This document shows positions 8,238 to 35,359 of a DNA stretch of 35,359 bases, piece after piece. Numbering within the stretch: position 1 is the first letter of the stretch; each line of letters begins with the position of its first letter. A program made the translations under genes and the position numbers. The notes under the pieces were generated by a model. That model saw only the letters and a list, made by a program, of their open reading frames with translations, did not search any database and was not told the DNA's origin. The DNA comes from a virus (Duplodnaviria > Heunggongvirae > Uroviricota > Caudoviricetes): positions 1 to 35,359 of the IMG/VR virus record IMGVR_UViG_2545824719_000022, one strand, 5' to 3'.

Positions 8238-8723
8238 CCGTTTAACTCCGTGGTTAATGGGTGCAACTATTTTCTGTTGGGCAGTGCATGAGACGCTATT
8301 TGACCTGGCTGGTCAGTGGATGAAACAACAGATAAAGAAAATGCGGGCAATTCCCCCCGCCAGTCCTGATTTGCACTCACTCATTCTCCAACTGGCTACT
8401 TACATAGCCCAAACGCTATCAAATCTGACAGTCTGCTTTGAGCGATCTGCGGACATTACTAACAGCATTCTGTATGAATAACGGGGGGTAGATCATTCCT
8501 GTCCTCACGACGACGCCTATCTATCATACAGTCGTTCTTTGGATCAAGACGCGTTCTGAAATGGTGTTTTTATGTATGTGCTGAATTCTGGGGCATAGAG
8601 TAAACCTTTCAAATTGCCAGAAACAGAAATGTGCGATTTAGTTGTCAAGTAATACCGGATAATTCAGCGATTCATCAAGAAATCATCGACCAGGCTGCTG
8701 TACATTCTCATCGGACGATTTTA

Positions 8724-9590
8724 CTATTCCTCAAGATCGCAGTTACTGCAATGACCTTCCATCCGGAATGCACCACATTCACAAGGCTCCATAGGAACAA
8801 AACCATCCATCTTGCTGTATTCACATTTATACCAGAGACAGACACCGACCCTTTGTTCCGGTAAATAAATTACGGATGGGACACTACATTCAGGACATTC
8901 CTGAAAATCCCAAGTTTGCAGATTATTCAGGCTGAAACCACAACAGATACAGTGAGTCCGTGCCGGAAAGCTTTCACTTTGGTAAAGGATAAAATGTGAA
9001 AAACTCTCACAAACGGGACAAAGTGCAAGGGTGTATTCCTGGTTAACAGTTATATCAAGGAATTGTTGCTCAAGAGCGATGATGTCTTGACGTAAATCAG
9101 AGTTCCATGAATTTTCGGTCTCATCTGACTGAATTATGACGAATGCGGGACGAAAAATTTGTTGGTACAGTTCACTCAGTTGCATTGCCAGTTCTTGCGG
9201 ACGAACCTCAAGGGCAAAATGCTGAAGGTTATTACGCAACTGACCCACCGTTTTCATCATTTGTAATGCAGATTCAGAAAATTCGGCTGGGTAATATGTC
9301 TTTAACAGCTTACAAAGCTGGTTGACGTTGACAGATTTACACTGGTGTAATTCTGACTCGGTTGGATGCGCCGGATCCACACATTTTTCTTGAAGCGATG
9401 CTGGATTAAAAATCGCTCCAGACCCATTGCGCGAAACTACGGCCTTCAACAATAGCTCAGCGGCCTGAAAGAGGTTAAGCAGGCACTGTTTGTAGTCACG
9501 TCGATCATGCCCTTCTAGCGCTTTGTTAAAGTAGTCCAGCCCGGTTTCCACTGAATCCAACGCATTTTCTAGTAAGTTAAAACGGACCAT
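8724..9590 (-). CDS. Cargo protein: HEPN-like N-terminal domain (Rx4H motif RNNLQH) plus C-terminal cysteine-rich multi-zinc-ribbon region; candidate defence/abortive-infection effector
   Basis: 288-aa ORF with ATG start in an AT-rich insert. N-terminal 130 aa are helical-looking, with R119-x4-H124. C-terminal 100 aa carry CPVC, HCICC, CPEC, CLWYKC, CEC and CSNC motifs. No P2 backbone counterpart. Confidence 0.55.
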   Translation of the reverse strand: MVRFNLLENALDSVETGLDYFNKALEGHDRRDYKQCLLNLFQAAELLLKAVVSRNGSGAIFNPASLQEKCVDPAHPTESELHQCKSVNVNQLCKLLKTYYPAEFSESALQMMKTVGQLRNNLQHFALEVRPQELAMQLSELYQQIFRPAFVIIQSDETENSWNSDLRQDIIALEQQFLDITVNQEYTLALCPVCESFSHFILYQSESFPARTHCICCGFSLNNLQTWDFQECPECSVPSVIYLPEQRVGVCLWYKCEYSKMDGFVPMEPCECGAFRMEGHCSNCDLEE

Positions 9591-10374: not shown

Positions 10375-11310
10375 TTAATAATATTTCCTGGCTTGCGCGC
10401 TCGTTTCGGTTAAGTTTATTTCATGGTAGTGATTATTTATAAAGTCACAAAAAGTACTAATTTTATCTTTGAGATTACTCATGCTATGCGTGATTTCGTC
10501 GTATAAATCGCTTTCCTCCTGATTTCGACAGTGGTCACCGGGATTTATAAAACTAAAAGTATCATTTGGTGCTGAATAATTATATGGAGCTTTTCTAAAC
10601 AAGATAATTAGATCACGCCAGGCCGTTGCAAAATCAATTGTAACATTCTTTAAAGCTGTATCATTCAGTTGAAAAACAGGTGAGTTTAAAATGTTCAAAA
10701 TATTATCGTATTCTTCAATAATTAATGAATGAATGTATTTTGCGCCCCACTGCAAATGTTCTATTGTTGAATGAAAATCAATAACATTCAACAATGTCGA
10801 CAAATTTGAGATATCTCTCTTGCGCAAAAATTCTTCCCTCGTCGGTTGGTGTCGTTCGAACATTTGCGGGTAGTACATTTTGAGTACAGCTGGGTCTTTG
10901 CTTAAATCAAAGCTAATATCCTCCCAGAAAACCACATCGACAGGAAACAGGCCTTTTAATTGTCTGGCATCATTGAGTGTTCTTACATAGCGCTGAATGC
11001 TAACATCCCTGGGCGCTGTCGTAGCGATGTAAAGAACCGTAATTTTTGGGCGAAATTTTTCAGCCTTGAGTAATTCATCATCGATTGTCGCCGTACTGAT
11101 TCCTGATACTGTATTTTTACACTGAATTCCAACGAAACGCCCAAGAGAGTAATCACCATATACATCAACTCCATCCTGCCGCTGCCCTGACCGTCCATGT
11201 CTGTTCAGATTAGGATTGGACCATCGCAGTTGGAATGAACTTTTGCACATATCCTCAAATTCGTCCCAAGATTTAGGGGGGGGTAACAACATTGAATTAT
11301 ATGTAACCAC
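10375..11310 (-). CDS. Cargo protein: Mrr-like PD-(D/E)xK restriction-endonuclease-fold N-terminal domain plus uncharacterised C-terminal domain; candidate defence nuclease
   Basis: 311-aa ORF with GTG start 7 nt after SD AAGGA (alternative ATG at 11292). N-terminus shows W..FE..C....F, then DGVDVYG, then GIQCK, then hydrophobic beta-strand-like segments (ITVLYIATT, VDVVFWEDIS): the typical Mrr catalytic-domain layout. AT-rich. Confidence 0.6.
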   Translation of the reverse strand: MVTYNSMLLPPPKSWDEFEDMCKSSFQLRWSNPNLNRHGRSGQRQDGVDVYGDYSLGRFVGIQCKNTVSGISTATIDDELLKAEKFRPKITVLYIATTAPRDVSIQRYVRTLNDARQLKGLFPVDVVFWEDISFDLSKDPAVLKMYYPQMFERHQPTREEFLRKRDISNLSTLLNVIDFHSTIEHLQWGAKYIHSLIIEEYDNILNILNSPVFQLNDTALKNVTIDFATAWRDLIILFRKAPYNYSAPNDTFSFINPGDHCRNQEESDLYDEITHSMSNLKDKISTFCDFINNHYHEINLTETSAQARKYY

Positions 11311-11785
11311 TTACTAATCCTTTATCTAAGATTCTTCATTTTTGTAATCACTATCATAATCATGCTTGATGTGCAATATCTTATTTGCCATGGTTATATG
11401 ACGTGAACATAATATATGCTGTAAGTATAAGCAGAATTTATTAATGGTGTTCGCCACTCAACGTAATGGTTTCACACTCTAAGGCTCTTTTTTAATAAAT
11501 CAAAACATTATGGACAGTGAATCATATCGGAAATGGTTCCTTTTAAATTGAATAACGGCCATAGTACACAGGTGTATGTGTTAATCGATTTTTCAGACGT
11601 TTTTTTCGCCTAACATGAGATTTCGTTCGATTAAGCACCAGACCCAATTACCACTATTTAATGAGTACAATTGCTTTACTTTAGGTCGAGTAGTAGTAAC
11701 GTCCGCTCTTGGCACAGAGCGGACTGTCAGATTAGGCTTTACTCTGTGCCATAGATATGTAATCTCACACCAGAGCTTATACAAC

Positions 11786-12313
11786 TTATTGCGGCATTTC
11801 CGGCCATTCAGGATTTGCAGGATCCACACGGCTGACCAGAACACTGTAGCGTTCCCATGCTTCCAGTCGGCTACGCTCCTCATCTGTTGCCATGTTCAGC
11901 CTGACAGCGCGCTCCAGTGGCAAAATCACGGATTCAGCATCTGCAAGAAGTCTGGCTTTCCGGTTTTCTGCCTGCTGCTGCAATTCCTCTGCCGTATAAA
12001 TGCGTTTAATCACTTTGCCGTCCTTAAACATCCAGTTCCCTGAAATGTCCGCCCGTCGGTTAGCAGTAATATCCGCCACTTCAACCACACTTAATCCATC
12101 TGGTCTGATAGCTGTCACATCCTTTTCCACATAGCGGATAATATTATCTTTGTCGTACGCTATTTTTATCGTGTCATCAGCAAAATACTTTTGTTCTTCG
12201 TACCAGTTCTTACCATCTTCTGAAAAAAACCAGACAACATCAAAGTCCTTTGTCAATTGATATTGTTCAACCGTTTTTGGATTACCCACCGTTATATTTA
12301 TCAAATGCTGCAT
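11786..12313 (-). CDS. G: Tail fibre assembly protein gpG
   Basis: 175-aa ORF with ATG start directly downstream of H; P2 G/Tfa-like sequence. Confidence 0.85.
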
Positions 12314-12316
12314 AAA

Positions 12317-14899
12317 TTATACCTGCGCCACGTTATACCATGTCCCGTTAATGTATTTCTGCACCGGTCTGTAATATATGCCACCAATGTTATCGGCAGA
12401 GTTTGAGCCGGTATCCTGAACAATAATGCCGGAATATACACACCCGGACGGTGCCTGATGTGTCCATGTCATGCCATTGTTCGCAGGTTTGTATGTGGCA
12501 GCACCACCAAGCCGGATATCCCGGACATAGCGTGAATCAAAGTTGCCATAGTTAGATGGTGATACCTGCCCGTTAACAGCAAAAGTGATGCTGTTATCTG
12601 TATTTCTCTGACTGTAAAAATGCCAGCCTGCATCATCACCTAATTCAGCCACCACCGGACGACTTGAGTTTCCCCACAAATTGAATGCGGCTTCCTTCGT
12701 GGATGTATTACTGCTGCTGACCGTGAATTTTTTCCCGCTACCGGCACGTACTTTGGTACTTGAGACAATATCACCAGTAACATTCAGGCCATGCCCCATT
12801 GATACAGCACCCGTGGCATCATTTATAATCAGCGGTCTTAAATTATTATAACTGCCTAATCTGTCACCTGATTTAGTCAACATAAAATAAGTGCTGCTGC
12901 CATCATTCCTGATAAAGAAACCATAATTGCCATAAGCAATGCGCAGACCATTAGCACTGAGTGATGTAATCTCACCTCTTGAACGGAGACCATAAGCGGA
13001 GCTGAGTGATAATTCTTCCTGAGCATCAGTATTACCAGTCGCCCAGCGAACTACCCCGCCCTGTACTGTTTCATGCCAGATAGTGTCTCCTTCTCCACCA
13101 CGAAACTTTCTGAGATATTTTTTGCCGCCTCTGGTGCCTGAACATAAGGCCGTAGACATATAGGCATTCTGGCTTCCGCCATCCTGATTAATCGTTCCGG
13201 TCATTGCGTCGCCCTGACGATTCCAGTCACGACGCCAGCCGGGGGAGTAGCCGTCCCCATGATTTATGTAAGTGAATTGCGCGCTGGTTGTACCGCCACC
13301 ACTTGATGTTGTCGGCGTGGTCACTCGAATAGTGATTGCAGATTTAGTTCCCATGACCTCGACGACACAACCAGCCAGGTGGATATCACCACATCCGGTA
13401 TCCGTAATGATTTTGTTATTTGCATATGACCAGGAGCCTTTGCACATCCAGTACGGATGATTAAATGCACCACGGGAATCCAGCCATTCAATAAACTGAG
13501 CGGTTGTCCAGTTTCCGGCTTCAGTGCTCAAAGCGCCGCTATAAGCACGACAGGCACCGATATTTTTCGTGAAGGTATCCTTTCCCGGAATATCCGCACC
13601 GTTCTGATCTTTCTGAAGACGTTTTTCAGCATTGTCATAGGCAGACTTCACCGCTTTTGATGTTGCAGCCAGCGTTTCAGAATCGCTGTTGGTGGCGCTA
13701 CTGAGCTGGACAAGACCTTTCCGCGCCGTGGTGGCGTCCTGTGCAGTGTATTTCCCGTTAGCAAGGTCATACGCTGTCTTAACCGCCTTTGGCGTTGCCG
13801 CAAGCGTTTCAGAATCGCTGTTGGTGGCGCTACTGAGCTGGACAAGACCTTTTCGCGCTGTGGTGGCATCCTGTGCAGTGTATTTCCCGTTAGCAAGGTC
13901 ATACGCTGTCTTAACCGCCTTTGGCGTTGCCGCAAGCGTTTCAGAATCGCTGTTGGTGGCGCTACTGAGCTGGACAAGACCTTTTCGCGCTGTGGTGGCA
14001 TCCTGTGCAGTGTATTTCCCGTTAGCAAGGTCATACGCTGTCTTAACCGCCTTTGGCGTTGCCGCAAGCGTTTCAGAATCGCTGTTGGTGACGCTACTGA
14101 GCTGGACAAGACCTTTTCGCGCGGTGGTGGCATCCTGTGCGGTATATTTCCCGTTAGCAAGGTCATATGCTGCCTTTACCGCTTTTGGTGTTGCGGCGAG
14201 CGTTTCAGACGTGCTGTTGGTGGCACTACTGAGCTGGACAAGGCCTTTTCGCGCTATGGTGGCGTCCTGTGCGGTATATTTCCCGTTAGCAAGGTCATAC
14301 GCGGCCTTTACCGCTTTCGGCGTTGCGGCCAGTGTTTCAGACGTGCTGTTGGTCGCACTGCTTAACTGAGTAAAACCTTTTGCGGTCAGCGAGGCGTCAG
14401 GGTGACGTCGTGACTGTTCATGTTCTGCAATTTTGTCATCAACGTAATCCTGCGTTGCCATCACCGTTGTGGTGTCAATGGTCAGCTCCACTGAGGCCAC
14501 ACTGCTGACGATGATGACCATGCGGCAGGTCTGCGAACGCCCTGAGCCTTCGGCAAGGGCTGGCTTATAACTTTCGGCCATGTTCGCCACGGCAATTAGC
14601 GTTCCCGCATCATCGTACAGGCCAAGTTCACGCATCCAGAAACCGCCCACCTCCGGCGGAATAACCAGCTCTGCGATAATATAATTACTGTTTCGTTTGT
14701 CCTGGCTGATTTTGTTCAGCGCATGTCGCCAGACTTCGTGGATAAGCCCGGTCTGTCCGGCATCCGGGACAGGCAATTTACCCCCGCCATCCCCGACGGC
14801 CATCGTGGTAATATTGACCTTCCGCCCTCCCGGTGCGGTTGCCGCTGCCAGCTTTGCTGCACCGGCAGTGGTGATAACGGTTCTGAATTTTGTGCTCAT
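12317..14899 (-). CDS. H: Tail fibre protein gpH (receptor-binding), with internal tandem repeats
   Basis: 860-aa ORF with ATG start; conserved P2 H-like N-terminus (MSTKFRTVITTAGAAKLAAATAPGG...), about 5.5 copies of a 44-aa repeat, and a distal receptor-binding-type region. Confidence 0.9.
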   Translation of the reverse strand: MSTKFRTVITTAGAAKLAAATAPGGRKVNITTMAVGDGGGKLPVPDAGQTGLIHEVWRHALNKISQDKRNSNYIIAELVIPPEVGGFWMRELGLYDDAGTLIAVANMAESYKPALAEGSGRSQTCRMVIIVSSVASVELTIDTTTVMATQDYVDDKIAEHEQSRRHPDASLTAKGFTQLSSATNSTSETLAATPKAVKAAYDLANGKYTAQDATIARKGLVQLSSATNSTSETLAATPKAVKAAYDLANGKYTAQDATTARKGLVQLSSVTNSDSETLAATPKAVKTAYDLANGKYTAQDATTARKGLVQLSSATNSDSETLAATPKAVKTAYDLANGKYTAQDATTARKGLVQLSSATNSDSETLAATPKAVKTAYDLANGKYTAQDATTARKGLVQLSSATNSDSETLAATSKAVKSAYDNAEKRLQKDQNGADIPGKDTFTKNIGACRAYSGALSTEAGNWTTAQFIEWLDSRGAFNHPYWMCKGSWSYANNKIITDTGCGDIHLAGCVVEVMGTKSAITIRVTTPTTSSGGGTTSAQFTYINHGDGYSPGWRRDWNRQGDAMTGTINQDGGSQNAYMSTALCSGTRGGKKYLRKFRGGEGDTIWHETVQGGVVRWATGNTDAQEELSLSSAYGLRSRGEITSLSANGLRIAYGNYGFFIRNDGSSTYFMLTKSGDRLGSYNNLRPLIINDATGAVSMGHGLNVTGDIVSSTKVRAGSGKKFTVSSSNTSTKEAAFNLWGNSSRPVVAELGDDAGWHFYSQRNTDNSITFAVNGQVSPSNYGNFDSRYVRDIRLGGAATYKPANNGMTWTHQAPSGCVYSGIIVQDTGSNSADNIGGIYYRPVQKYINGTWYNVAQV
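13620..14390. repeat. About 5.5 near-identical tandem copies of a 132-bp unit inside H (phage tail fibre repeat)
   Basis: Period measured directly: the GCGTTTCAG motif recurs at 13672, 13804 and 13936 (132 bp apart). Protein unit is GLVQLSSATNS(D/T)SETLAATPKAVK(A/T)AYDLANGKYTAQDATTARK. Boundaries approximate. Confidence 0.85.
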
Positions 14900-14909
14900 T
14901 ATTCCTCAC

Positions 14910-15440
14910 TTATCCGGGGTAAACCGTAATTACATCGCCGTCGTAAGCCACACCACCGGCGAACAGGTAGCCGGGAATGTCCCGGGTAATGTTCAGGCCA
15001 ATAAGGTGGCGGCTTGCAGGTTTGGCATCAGCAATCAGCCGTTCCATTTCCTGATACATTGCCTCTGTGATGCCACTTTCCAGTACACCAATATCAAGCC
15101 GGAAGGTGCCGGGCGGGTCACTGTTTTCCCACCACTCCGTCACGTTGATGAGATAGCCGAGCGGCTCCACCACACGCCGGATTGCACCTATAGTGCCTTT
15201 ATGACAGTGGATGAAATACGCATCGCGGATAACGGCGCGTTTTGTCGCTTCCGGCCACTTCTCATCCCACCTGTCGACCGAAAACGCCCACGCCAGCCAC
15301 GGCAGCAAATTTGCCGGACAGGTATCCGGGTTCCACAGCTCACGAATACTGACCGGCGTTTTTTCAATTTCCGCACAGGCTTTTGCGGCGGCGACCTCAA
15401 GCGGTGATGAGCCGGTCGGCAGCAGTCGCGAATCACTCAT
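14910..15440 (-). CDS. I: Baseplate assembly protein gpI
   Basis: 176-aa ORF with ATG start; P2 I-like; overlaps J by 8 nt. Confidence 0.85.
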   Translation of the reverse strand: MSDSRLLPTGSSPLEVAAAKACAEIEKTPVSIRELWNPDTCPANLLPWLAWAFSVDRWDEKWPEATKRAVIRDAYFIHCHKGTIGAIRRVVEPLGYLINVTEWWENSDPPGTFRLDIGVLESGITEAMYQEMERLIADAKPASRHLIGLNITRDIPGYLFAGGVAYDGDVITVYPG

Positions 15441-27075: not shown

Positions 27076-29292
27076 ATGGAACTTAGATTAAAAAATGTTA
27101 CCAGTTATAAGAAAGACGCCTTCACAATACTGAATCTTGAAAAAAGAGTAAACATACTATACGGCCAAAATGGTTGTGGCAAATCTACCATTTCAAATTA
27201 TTTCTACGACTCTACACACACAGATTATAACGAGTGTGAATGTACCCTTCTTGACAATTACAAACCTCTTGTTTACAACACTAAATTTATTGAAGATAAT
27301 TTCTACAATGCACAGGAACAAAAAGGTGTTTTTACATTAAGTAAAGAAAATGCAGATATTGAAAAACAATTAATTAAAAAAGAAGCAATTAAACAGCAAC
27401 TTACAGAGCAATATAGACAAAAAAAAGGAGTGTTATTGAAATTAGAAGCAGAAATGGAAAAAAAAGAAAATGAATACATCGAATCGATCTGGAAAAAAAC
27501 AGAACCAATCAGAAACTCTGTACTAAAAATCTTAATGAAAGGTAAAGTTGGCTATAAAAGACCTTTTTTTGAGATGATAAAATCATCCTCACCAATCACC
27601 TTTATTAATTTAAATGATATAGCAAAAGAATACTCTATACTATTAGAAAATAGAAACAATGAAACCGCATTAATAACTCCTTTACACCCATATACCCCAT
27701 CAATTGATGATGTAAATACATTAGCAACACCTATAATAGATACAAGCAATAGCTATTTATCAGAAACCATTAATAAACTTCATAATCTTGACTGGGTAAA
27801 AAAAGGTAAAGAACATTATTTAGACGGTTCTACATGTCCGTTTTGTCAGGAAAAAACTATTAGTCGCGAATTTTTAAATGCCCTTAAATCAATATTTGAC
27901 GAAAGTTATTCAAAGAAAGTAAAACAGCTCTCAGATATAAAGTCAGTTTATGAGAAAAATACCATATATCATTTTAACGAAATACAAAACAATATATCAT
28001 CATGTGCACTAATCAATGAGAAAGATAAAGAGATCATTATTTCCAATATTAAAATATTGCAAAACATTGCAGAAAAAAATTTAATAAACATTATTGATAA
28101 GATCAACAATCCATCAACATGCGTTACATTAGAAATTGATAAAGAACTAGAAAATCATGTTCAGGAAAGCATAGACGCTGTTAACAAAAAAATAAGAGAC
28201 ATAAATGATAAGGTTAAAAAACTCAAAGAGTATGAGAATAAAATCGGAAAACAAGTTTGGGGGGCTCTCCATGCTTTTTGCAGCGATGATTTAGAGAATT
28301 TATCCAAACACAAAGAAAAATTCTTTGATATCAAAAAGAAAGTTCATGATGAATTAAATAATATTGAGCAACAAGGAAAAGAAAATAATCTCACAATAAA
28401 AGCATTGCGAGATAAAATATCTAACATTGATTCTACGATAGACTCAATAAACACCCATTTAAAAAATCTAGGGATCTCTGGTTTTTGTATTGAAAAACAT
28501 GCAGAAAGAAAAGATATGTACATTATATCTCGACCAGGGCATACAAAAAACCAAAATGTTTATAGATCTCTTAGCGAAGGTGAAAAAACACTAATAACGT
28601 TTCTTTATTTTTTAGAGTGCTGTAAAGGTAAAACCGATAAAAATGATACCGATAGCAGGGATATTTTTATTGTTATTGACGATCCAATATCTAGTCTATC
28701 GCAAAACTATGTCTACGACATCGCATCAATTATTCATCACCACATTATAAAAAATGAATTAACAAAGAAGGTATTAATCCTTACTCACAATCTTTATTTC
28801 TTTCATGAACTTATTAAGCTATCTCCTAAAAGCAGAGAAGACAAACTATTTAAGAAAAACTATTATCTAGGTAGAGTAACGAAAAATGATTTTAGTATAA
28901 TTACTGAAATACAAAAAAACAGCATACAGAATGAATATCAATCTTTGTGGCAAATATTAAAAGATGCAAAAGATGGCAAAGCAAACAAAATCATAATACC
29001 TAATATTATGAGAAACATACTAGAATATTATTTTGCATTTGTTCATAGAACAGATGCTCTACAAGATGAATTAACAAAGTTGGCACGCGACGATAGCAAC
29101 AGTGATTTCAAAGCATTCTACAGATACATTAACAGAGGTTCTCACTCTGATGCGGTAAATATTACTGATATGGGCGACATAGACCCAGATAAATACCTAA
29201 AACAATTGAGAACAATATTTTCAGCTACTGGTGACGAAATGCATTATTTAAAAATGATGGACGAACTAGAAGAGGAGAACGTTACCGCTTAG
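27076..29292 (+). CDS. Cargo protein: RloC/PrrC-family anticodon nuclease-like ABC/Rad50-type ATPase (738 aa)
   Basis: Motifs read from the translation: Walker A GQNGCGKST near the N-terminus; long Lys/Glu-rich coiled-coil with central CPFC zinc-hook-like motif; ABC signature-like LSEGEK; Walker B IFIVIDDP; H-loop LILTHN; C-terminal R-x3-E (RNILEYY) and N-x2-S-H (NRGSHSD) resembling the PrrC/RloC anticodon-nuclease catalytic motifs. Very AT-rich; ATG preceded by GAGG. Confidence 0.65.
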   Translation: MELRLKNVTSYKKDAFTILNLEKRVNILYGQNGCGKSTISNYFYDSTHTDYNECECTLLDNYKPLVYNTKFIEDNFYNAQEQKGVFTLSKENADIEKQLIKKEAIKQQLTEQYRQKKGVLLKLEAEMEKKENEYIESIWKKTEPIRNSVLKILMKGKVGYKRPFFEMIKSSSPITFINLNDIAKEYSILLENRNNETALITPLHPYTPSIDDVNTLATPIIDTSNSYLSETINKLHNLDWVKKGKEHYLDGSTCPFCQEKTISREFLNALKSIFDESYSKKVKQLSDIKSVYEKNTIYHFNEIQNNISSCALINEKDKEIIISNIKILQNIAEKNLINIIDKINNPSTCVTLEIDKELENHVQESIDAVNKKIRDINDKVKKLKEYENKIGKQVWGALHAFCSDDLENLSKHKEKFFDIKKKVHDELNNIEQQGKENNLTIKALRDKISNIDSTIDSINTHLKNLGISGFCIEKHAERKDMYIISRPGHTKNQNVYRSLSEGEKTLITFLYFLECCKGKTDKNDTDSRDIFIVIDDPISSLSQNYVYDIASIIHHHIIKNELTKKVLILTHNLYFFHELIKLSPKSREDKLFKKNYYLGRVTKNDFSIITEIQKNSIQNEYQSLWQILKDAKDGKANKIIIPNIMRNILEYYFAFVHRTDALQDELTKLARDDSNSDFKAFYRYINRGSHSDAVNITDMGDIDPDKYLKQLRTIFSATGDEMHYLKMMDELEEENVTA

Positions 29293-33388: not shown

Positions 33389-33576
33389 ACCCTCCGGCTT
33401 TTCAGAAAGATCAGAACCTTTTTTAACGGACTCTGTTTTTTGGTGCGGATAATGATTCCCTTACGCCCCTTACCGTGGGTGATGGTGAAGTCAATCGCCC
33501 TGGGGCTTTCGTTACGCAGTAACTGAGCAATACAACGCGGCTCATTCATAATCACAACCCCATCCACAAAAGCCAT
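33379..33576 (-). CDS. Small early-operon ORF between cox and B (hypothetical)
   Basis: 65-aa ORF overlapping both neighbours; an internal start is possible. Position matches the small ORF found between cox and B in P2-like phages. Confidence 0.4.
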   Translation of the reverse strand: MAFVDGVVIMNEPRCIAQLLRNESPRAIDFTITHGKGRKGIIIRTKKQSPLKKVLIFLKSRRVWK

Positions 33577-33824
33577 GCATCACGCTGTTCAACCGGTCGG
33601 TTATAAAACGCCTCATGCACACCGCGATTGAACTCAGGAATGAAAACCAGCTTGTCGCCTGCGCGAGCATTTGGTTTGTTTGGATCACGAAACTCAACAA
33701 CCGGCAGCTTATTAGCTTTAATCATTTCAACAACCGCAGTACGCGGTTTTCCGAGCAATTCTGCGAACTTATCAGGGTGTACCGCGTCAATCGGATACTG
33801 AATTACATAGTTGTTTGCGTCCAT
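33552..33824 (-). CDS. cox: Cox-like excisionase / developmental-switch repressor
   Basis: 90-aa product from ATG at 33824 (MDANNYVIQYPIDAVHPDKFAELLGKPRTAVVEMIKANKLPVVEF...), an HTH-like small protein, first gene of the early operon and divergent from C. Confidence 0.78.
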   Translation of the reverse strand: MDANNYVIQYPIDAVHPDKFAELLGKPRTAVVEMIKANKLPVVEFRDPNKPNARAGDKLVFIPEFNRGVHEAFYNRPVEQRDAWLLWMGL

Positions 33825-33972
33825 AAAACACACCTGTCGTGCTAATCTTATTTGTTCCAGCCCTTTCAAAACCGCTCAGGAACGCTCCTGACTGGCTGGA
33901 CTCACGCCCCAAAAGGTTTCCAAACAAGTACCTTTTGAGGGGAATATAGTCTCCATAAGGGAACCATGTCAA
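33825..33972. promoter_or_regulatory. Lysis-lysogeny switch region: divergent early (Pe) and repressor (Pc) promoters with C/Cox operators
   Basis: 148-bp intergenic region between divergent cox and C, the position of the P2 immunity switch; individual operators not resolved. Confidence 0.55.
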
Positions 33973-34266
33973 ATGAAAATATCGGAGAAACTTCGCGCAA
34001 TCCGCAAAGCTGAGGGATTAACGCAAAAAAAATTTTGCGAACTTAGCGGATTAGCACTTAGCTCATTGAAAAATTACGAAGGAGGACATAAAGAGCCTGG
34101 ACTACAAATCGTAAAGCAAGTGGTAAACACGCCTCTGTTTAAAAAATATACACTGTGGATTATGACAGATGAGGTTGCGCCAGAAGCCGGGCAGATTTCC
34201 CCGGTCGTCGCACACTCTGGGCAAGAAGAAACAACCTCGTCACACTCAGACCGCAAAACTGGCTAA
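33973..34266 (+). CDS. C: Immunity repressor C
   Basis: 97-aa ORF with ATG start; HTH-like N-terminus and the C-terminal FKKYTLWIMTDEVAPEAGQISP... segment, which resembles P2 C as I recall it. Confidence 0.85.
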   Translation: MKISEKLRAIRKAEGLTQKKFCELSGLALSSLKNYEGGHKEPGLQIVKQVVNTPLFKKYTLWIMTDEVAPEAGQISPVVAHSGQEETTSSHSDRKTG

Positions 34267-34378
34267 CTATTTACCGAAATTACATGCACATAAAATGCAT
34301 GTTACTGGTAAAAAAATATTCACCACACAACCATAAAGGGTCAAACAACAAGAAAACACGTGCTCATCGGAGGGCTTT

Positions 34379-35359
34379 ATGAGTATCAGAAAGCTCGATG
34401 ATGGACGTTATGAAGTGGATATTAGGCCTCGCGGTCGCGATGGAAAGCGCATCCGCAGGAAATTTGAAAGAAAAGCTGAAGCACTAGCATTTGAGCGATA
34501 CACAATCGCCAATGCCAGTCAGAAAGAATGGGGAGGCCAGCGAGCAGACCGCCGAACTTTGACAGAATTGCTCGACATCTGGTGGAAATACCACGGGCAA
34601 AACCACGAGCATGGGACAAAAGAGTTTAATCATCTGCTCAAAACCATCAGCGGTATAGGTGATATACCAGTGAGTCGGATGAACAAAAGGGCTTTGATGG
34701 ATTATCGCTCCATGCGACTACGTGATGGCATCAGTGCTGCAACGATAAACCGCGACATGTACCGATTATCCGGCATGTTCACAAAATTAATTCAATTAGA
34801 TGAATTTTCCGGGCAACACCCAATTCACGGACTGCCGCCACTGACGGAGGCTAACCCTGAAATGACGTTCCTAGAAAAAGCAGAAATCGAAAAACTGCTA
34901 AATGTTTTGACTGGTGATGACTTACTTGTCGCGCTTTTATGTCTGAGCACTGGAGGAAGATGGACGGAAGTTGCCACGCTAAAACCAGCACAGATTACAA
35001 GTTGCAGGGTTACCTTCCTGAAAACCAAAAACGGTAAAAAGCGAACAGTGCCGATATCTGAGGAACTGGAGAAAAAAGTTAAAGAGGAGGCCAGCGCCAA
35101 ATTGTTCAAGGTCGATTATGAGAAGTTTTGCGGGATTTTACGCAGAGTAAAACCTGACATACCTCCCAATCAGGCAACCCACATTCTGCGGCATACATTC
35201 GCAAGCCATTTCATGATGAATGGGGGCAACATAATTGCACTGCAACAGATTCTGGGGCATGCGAGCATTCAGCAGACAATGACCTATGCGCATCTTGCGC
35301 CTGACTACCTGCAGAACGCCGTCGCTCTGAATCCACTAAAAGGCGGAGTGACGTTATAA
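34379..35359 (+). CDS. int: Tyrosine integrase (P2 Int family)
   Basis: 326-aa ORF with ATG start ending with TAA at 35357-35359; conserved HILRHTFASHF and LGHASIQQTMTYAHL catalytic box (R..H-x-x-R..Y). Confidence 0.9.
   Translation: MSIRKLDDGRYEVDIRPRGRDGKRIRRKFERKAEALAFERYTIANASQKEWGGQRADRRTLTELLDIWWKYHGQNHEHGTKEFNHLLKTISGIGDIPVSRMNKRALMDYRSMRLRDGISAATINRDMYRLSGMFTKLIQLDEFSGQHPIHGLPPLTEANPEMTFLEKAEIEKLLNVLTGDDLLVALLCLSTGGRWTEVATLKPAQITSCRVTFLKTKNGKKRTVPISEELEKKVKEEASAKLFKVDYEKFCGILRRVKPDIPPNQATHILRHTFASHFMMNGGNIIALQQILGHASIQQTMTYAHLAPDYLQNAVALNPLKGGVTL

Follow-up and report, generated by a model that had tools for sequence, protein, structure and literature searches.

Gene H, the tail fibre gene of a P2-like prophage of Escherichia coli, carries a tandem array of 132-bp units within its coding sequence. 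A preliminary description of the locus, made from the DNA itself, counted about 5.5 such units at 13620-14390, called them near-identical with only a few substitutions between copies, and took this as a sign of recent expansion or contraction. This raises the question of how old the array is, i.e., whether it arose recently as a whole or whether recent copies were added to an older structure, and what a change in copy number would mean for the fibre. We addressed this by analysing the units of the array, the protein they encode and the H genes of related prophages and phages. The window is the whole stretch of DNA that was analysed, 35,359 nt of IMG/VR virus record IMGVR_UViG_2545824719_000022, and all positions refer to it.

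Results

The prophage and its gene content

The window starts with E. coli yegQ, which is 100% identical to many genomes, and the E. coli integration site of the prophage lies beside yegQ/ogrK; no tRNA was found in the window. The closest relative in a complete genome is a prophage of ETEC strain 602354, whose annotation, running from ogrK to the integrase, is that of a full P2-like prophage and which is 98.5-99% identical over most of the window. The right prophage end (33551-35359, immunity/integrase) has no match to the 602354 prophage, and the sequence comparison indicates a putatively swapped C/int module at these positions; the integrase ORF (34379-35359) runs off the window.

Cargo genes were seen at two further places. 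One is a 738-aa AAA_13 ATPase (27076-29292, plus strand); with the portal gene on one side and replication gene A on the other, it occupies the old/tin cargo slot of P2-like phages. It matches PDC-S06, a candidate defence family of PADLOC (E 5e-254), and its C-terminal region is PrrC-like. The Z/fun cargo slot, between the tail sheath gene FI and the assembly gene G, holds two hypothetical proteins (8724-9590 and 10375-11310, both minus strand), the 288-aa one with an N-terminal match to PADLOC PDC-S64 (E 4e-21) and the 311-aa one unmatched in both PADLOC and Pfam; a TIR_2 protein takes this slot in the P0001 prophage (L083). The slot is bracketed by a 40-nt inverted repeat (8422-8461 and 11694-11733) whose arms are 80% complementary and separated by 3232 nt; it begins right after G, ends upstream of FI, and could be due to chance.

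Gene H and the domains of its product

Gene H, its two conserved or exchanged parts and its neighbours are as follows:

12317-14899, minus strand: tail fibre gene H, 860 aa, assigned from Pfam hits and synteny with the E. coli 602354 prophage
14381-14899, minus strand: N-terminal baseplate-attachment domain of H (aa 1-173), 81-100% identical to 80 P2-like loci in IMG/VR
12317-13627, minus strand: C-terminal half of H (aa 425-860), comprising a Mu S'-like module, a gp34-type trimerisation domain and a Mu S-like distal receptor-binding region
11786-12313, minus strand: tail fibre assembly chaperone gpG/Tfa, downstream of H (PF02413 Caudo_TAP, E 7e-35)
14910-15440, minus strand: baseplate protein gpI, immediately upstream of H (PF09684 Tail_P2_I, E 6e-56)

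In Pfam, the N-terminal tail-collar/baseplate-binding domain PF12571 covers aa 1-151 (E 1.5e-58). It is followed by six stretches of PF03406 (Phage_fiber_2, the 'phage tail fibre repeat'), which recur every 44 aa over aa 174-424 and score 380.3 bits where the cut-off is 22 (E 1.4e-116), and by PF21446, a trimerisation domain of the T4 gp34 type, at aa 629-692. The C-terminal half matches the sequences of Mu S' (PDB 8ju3, E 9e-91), Mu S (5yvq, E 2e-63) and T4 gp34 chains. With gpI and Tfa on either side, the genes stand in the I-H-G order inside a P2-like late operon that is expected of a P2-type gpH, and the gene is indeed the tail fibre gene H that the preliminary description had named. By homology, its product is a P2-type (Peduovirus) tail fibre protein gpH, which would form trimers and bind the receptor. 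An exact look-up found the 860-aa protein to be identical to RefSeq WP_001554324.1, an entry given for several E. coli, and in one GenBank record it goes under 'phage tail fiber repeat family protein'.

Three near-identical units between older ones

Tandem Repeats Finder returned a single tandem array at 13634-14353 with a period of 132, 5.5 copies, 93% matches, 0% indels and a score of 1139, in agreement with the position and copy number first described, and an independent repeat search of the window found six in-register copies at a spacing of exactly 132 nt. Such an array is far beyond chance. In coding phase, and numbered from the N-terminal end of the protein, the units are:

14249-14380, minus strand: U1, type a, old (aa 174-217), identical to units at position 1 in other P2-like H genes
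14117-14248, minus strand: U2, type b, old (aa 218-261), nearest relatives are position-2 units elsewhere
13985-14116, minus strand: U3, type c, probable recent extra copy (aa 262-305), 1 nt from U4, with one A-to-V change
13853-13984, minus strand: U4, type c, probable recent extra copy (aa 306-349), 3 synonymous nt from U5
13721-13852, minus strand: U5, type c, orthologue of unit 3 in four-unit alleles (aa 350-393)
13628-13720, minus strand: U6, type d, terminal partial unit (aa 394-424, also the extent of its HMM stretch), the first 31 residues of the motif
13737-13958 and, exactly repeated, 13869-14090: the longest perfect direct repeat, 222 bp at an offset of 132, from a scan for exact runs

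The unit-by-unit comparison shows that near-identity holds for the centre of the array, where 1, 3 or 4 of 132 nt separate U3, U4 and U5 from one another, but not for its flanks. U2 differs from U3-U5 at 15-17 of 132 nt and U1 at 24-25 (81-89% identity), mostly in synonymous codons, and U6 shares only its first ~93 nt with the other units. In the array, older and diverged units thus enclose three that are near-identical. The older units have kept their peptide sequence while their DNA drifted.

The array also accounts for long open reading frames on both strands, which the preliminary description had already regarded as spurious:

13689-14369, plus strand: spurious ORF of 226 aa; there are only 2 stops in this frame across the 792-nt array
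13648-14166, minus strand: spurious ORF of 172 aa in another minus-strand frame, wholly inside the H coding frame

Such frames stay open because the stop-free frame of one unit repeats throughout the array. Neither the 226-aa nor the 172-aa ORF has a Pfam match above cut-off, and we rejected both as genes on that ground.

Copy number and unit types in related H genes

H of the 602354 prophage is 2319 bp long (772 aa), has four units and is exactly 264 nt shorter than H of the window. The C-terminal 1272 nt of the two genes show 2 differences, and unit 3 of the shorter allele has 0 differences from U5, as has unit 3 of a further locus (L042), whereas U3 and U4 are absent from the four-unit 602354 allele. 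When copy number was compared with the H genes of related prophages, as the preliminary description had proposed, four units emerged as the common state. Four units occur in 93 of 97 distinct proteins of the window's C-terminal type (at least 90% identity in the C-terminus); of the others, two have three, one has five and only the window protein has six. When 5,426 complete E. coli genomes were searched, each of the 40 best matches listed measured 2319 bp, which corresponds to four units; genomes with any H match have a median of three matching places.

Across C-terminal types, the complete H genes in IMG/VR carry one to five units, always in 44-aa steps from residue 174, with HMM counts of 7, 14, 14, 30 and 6 genes for one, two, three, four and five units, respectively. 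Among the sampled H proteins of the P2 type, no count higher than six was seen. We then compared the units by position in a non-redundant set of 72 P2-like H genes, taken from IMG/VR and other loci. The closest units to U1 lie at position 1 and those to U2 at position 2, U3, U4 and U5 are all closest to position 3 of four-unit arrays, and U6 is closest to terminal units. Since U3-U5 are all nearest to position-3 units, the window allele can be written a-b-c-c-c-d, the common one being a-b-c-d. From one P2-like H gene to another, units at the same position are orthologous, and units are not homogenised within genomes; neighbouring units in other arrays are typically 81-92% identical.

Alleles of 860, 816 and 772 aa with the same termini demonstrate that copy number varies in whole units between close relatives. 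The 816-aa allele, from P0001, has two identical c units with a variant signature of their own in a more diverged gene (57 C-terminal differences), so that its duplication of a c-type unit was, judging from these variants, independent of that in the window. Similar independent duplications of the c-type unit were found in two other loci (L047 and L019).

Records under the name P2 differ as well: NC_070905.1 (L084, labelled Peduovirus P2) has a 736-aa H protein with four units, and a 669-aa, two-unit class of H occurs in several IMG/VR loci, so records labelled 'P2' differ in repeat number. In Yersinia phage VB-YPM-4 (L085, 835-3038) H is annotated as two CDSs with a stop or frame break after residue 183, inside the first repeat unit, which reflects either faulty sequencing of the repeat or a genuine disruption.

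The array at the junction of constant and variable fibre parts

P2-like H genes that carry a different C-terminus cease to resemble H of the window at about 13634, where the array has its distal edge, and U6 forms the junction to the variable C-terminal half. As the array lies between the conserved N-terminal part and the variable half, and similarity ends at the array, the repeat marks the constant/variable junction. The C-terminal module is 84% identical at the nucleotide level to an inverted fibre cassette beside a hin invertase in the 49-kb Yersinia phage vB_YpM_41. Neither an invertase nor an inverted fibre cassette near H was found in the window, and an invertible fibre segment or a DGR near H was rejected as an explanation, the sole inverted repeat found being the one that flanks the downstream cargo slot.

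Discussion

A probable gain of two units in an old array

Taken together, the array is very probably an ancient run of PF03406 units in the shaft of gpH, with two recent extra c units in the allele of the window. The array as a whole would be old and under purifying selection, and recency, which had been proposed for the array without distinction, would apply to two units only: the closest prophage has two fewer, and its unit 3 is U5. The array, with its five complete units and an incomplete sixth, would lie in the proximal part of the shaft of a trimeric gpH, and it connects the conserved baseplate-binding domain with a receptor-binding half of the Mu S/S' kind that is exchanged horizontally.

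The two extra c units were most likely gained in two successive one-unit steps, probably by unequal homologous recombination between misaligned units or by replication slippage, and the misaligned units may have lain within one genome or in related P2-like phages. We infer a repeat-mediated gain from length differences that always come to an exact multiple of 132 nt and keep the frame, from the extra units being the youngest and from the presence of a long perfect repeat; the slippage or recombination invoked in the preliminary description fits these length differences. Further slippage or unequal recombination has a substrate in the 222-bp perfect direct repeat. Other prophages carry, as alleles of unit 3, both the Ala-to-Val change of U3 and the three synonymous differences that separate U4 from U5, which makes slippage followed by mutation indistinguishable from recombination between phages, and with a median of three matching places per E. 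coli genome, partners for such recombination are available. A reading of U3 and U4 as chimeras with a c head and a b tail was dropped as a firm claim, the same tails being ordinary unit-3 alleles elsewhere.

The direction of change has also to be considered. If six units were ancestral for this fibre type, the common four-unit alleles would be products of contraction, and indeed deletions between direct repeats are generally easier than duplications and three-unit alleles of the same C-terminal type exist. However, the extra units are the youngest in the array (1-4 nt apart against 15-25 nt for the old ones), four-unit alleles are spread across diverged C-terminal types and lineages, and unit 3 of the four-unit allele equals U5 exactly. 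Expansion in the window is likelier than contraction in its relatives because 93 of the 97 proteins with the same C-terminus have four units, and we regard an ancestral six-unit state as highly improbable. An assembly artefact deserves somewhat more attention, although we still consider it unlikely. The window is a single sequence whose copy number may rest on a short-read draft assembly, and the true gene could have the usual four units or some other number. The 396 bp of 97-99% identical sequence and the 222-bp perfect repeat exceed typical short-read length; many partial proteins in the 90% cluster start inside or directly after the array, an indication that short-read assemblies often fail there, and one member has a scrambled N-terminus; the uniform 2319 bp of the best 40 matches listed from complete genomes points the same way. 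Against this, U3-U5 are told apart by 1-4 SNPs in a consistent order, repeats are usually collapsed rather than expanded by assemblers, the exact 860-aa protein is a RefSeq non-redundant entry for several E. coli, and five-unit alleles with independent duplications occur in other assemblies.

A different suggestion is that the array is a contingency-type VNTR locus in which high-frequency switching is selected to tune fibre reach to the thickness of O-antigen or capsule. Copy number is polymorphic within several C-terminal types (3/4/5/6), unit duplications recur independently and a long perfect repeat is available. Yet four units dominate strongly (93 of 97), the 81-92% identity of neighbours in most arrays is that of old, stable units, and the units are positional orthologues that have not been homogenised within genomes, so that we give this suggestion little credence. 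The reading that we retain is an old array with two recently added c units.

What the extra units may mean for the fibre

With two more units, each chain gains 88 residues, which would lengthen the shaft and leave the receptor-binding tip unaltered; it is plausible that every unit adds a fixed length to the trimeric shaft. An AlphaFold2 monomer of the full 860-aa chain, built on a 20-sequence alignment, had a mean pLDDT of 36.5, which is unusable, and gave a helical tendency only. No structure of a multi-unit array was found in the PDB, where sequences with the motif are Mu S chains with one unit, and the literature on PF03406 and the P2 gpH repeats yielded no paper on the structure or length variation of the array. 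The one experimental hint found comes from the fibres of EHEC prophages, where the Pf2 region was read as a presumptive globular knob between stalks from rotary-shadowing EM (PMC3368898).

A more far-reaching proposal is that the PF03406 array serves as an evolvable length ruler, the six-unit allele having been selected for the reach of the tip and the near-identical central units leaving the locus poised for rapid change. A longer shaft would then let the Mu S'-type tip reach its core-LPS receptor through thicker O-antigen or capsule. The six-unit allele is rare and the prophage lineage is ETEC-associated. We consider this proposal doubtful.

The main value of the array lies in annotation and quality control. 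It accounts for spurious ORFs on both strands and for breaks and mis-calls of H in draft assemblies, and it is the reason for differences in H length among otherwise near-identical P2-like prophages. It is also a small, clean example of how a shaft may grow by whole structural units with an unchanged receptor-binding tip. Its end is a junction of tail-fibre module exchange between P2-, Mu- and P1-type phages and is as such relevant to the engineering of P2 or tailocin fibres, although no new principle is involved.

Comparison with known systems

The array of the window is of the kind found in other P2-type gpH proteins, which share the 44-aa motif KGxVQLSSATNSxSETLAATPKAVKxAYDLANGKYTAQDATTAR, the start of the array at residue 174 after PF12571 and the I-H-G gene order. 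It differs from them in having six units against one to five (mode four) in 72 other P2-like H genes sampled, and in that three of its units are near-identical at the DNA level. The unit type itself is widespread: a profile of the window units found 4093 representative clusters at E 0.001 or better among 1.84 billion proteins, and the longest PF03406-type arrays have 11-12 stretches in fibres of 780-850 aa (12 in 846 aa) and 23 in a protein of 3377 aa. Six copies are thus unremarkable for the family, and the window allele is an ordinary length variant and no new kind of element. Prophage fibres such as those represented by P0136, P0137 and P0138 also carry PF03406-type units in tandem but differ from the window protein in their N-terminal domains and in the alternation of 44-aa units with longer ones of ~63 aa.

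The adenovirus fibre is trimeric, as gpH would be, and the number of its shaft repeats sets the distance between attachment domain and knob. However, it is unrelated in sequence and fold, has a 15-residue beta-spiral repeat and belongs to a eukaryotic virus. Phage Mu is closer: its S protein (PDB 5yvq, 8ju3 and 9ki1, Mu S/S') has a single unit, at residues 117-160, just before the variable part; U6 of the window aligns to this unit, and the C-terminal half of the window protein is homologous to the Mu S' and S modules. In Mu, the C-terminus behind the single unit is switched by an invertible segment, whereas no invertase or inverted cassette was seen near H in the window. Both the repeat family and the protein are already known and deposited, and the particularity of the window is the recent expansion by two units.
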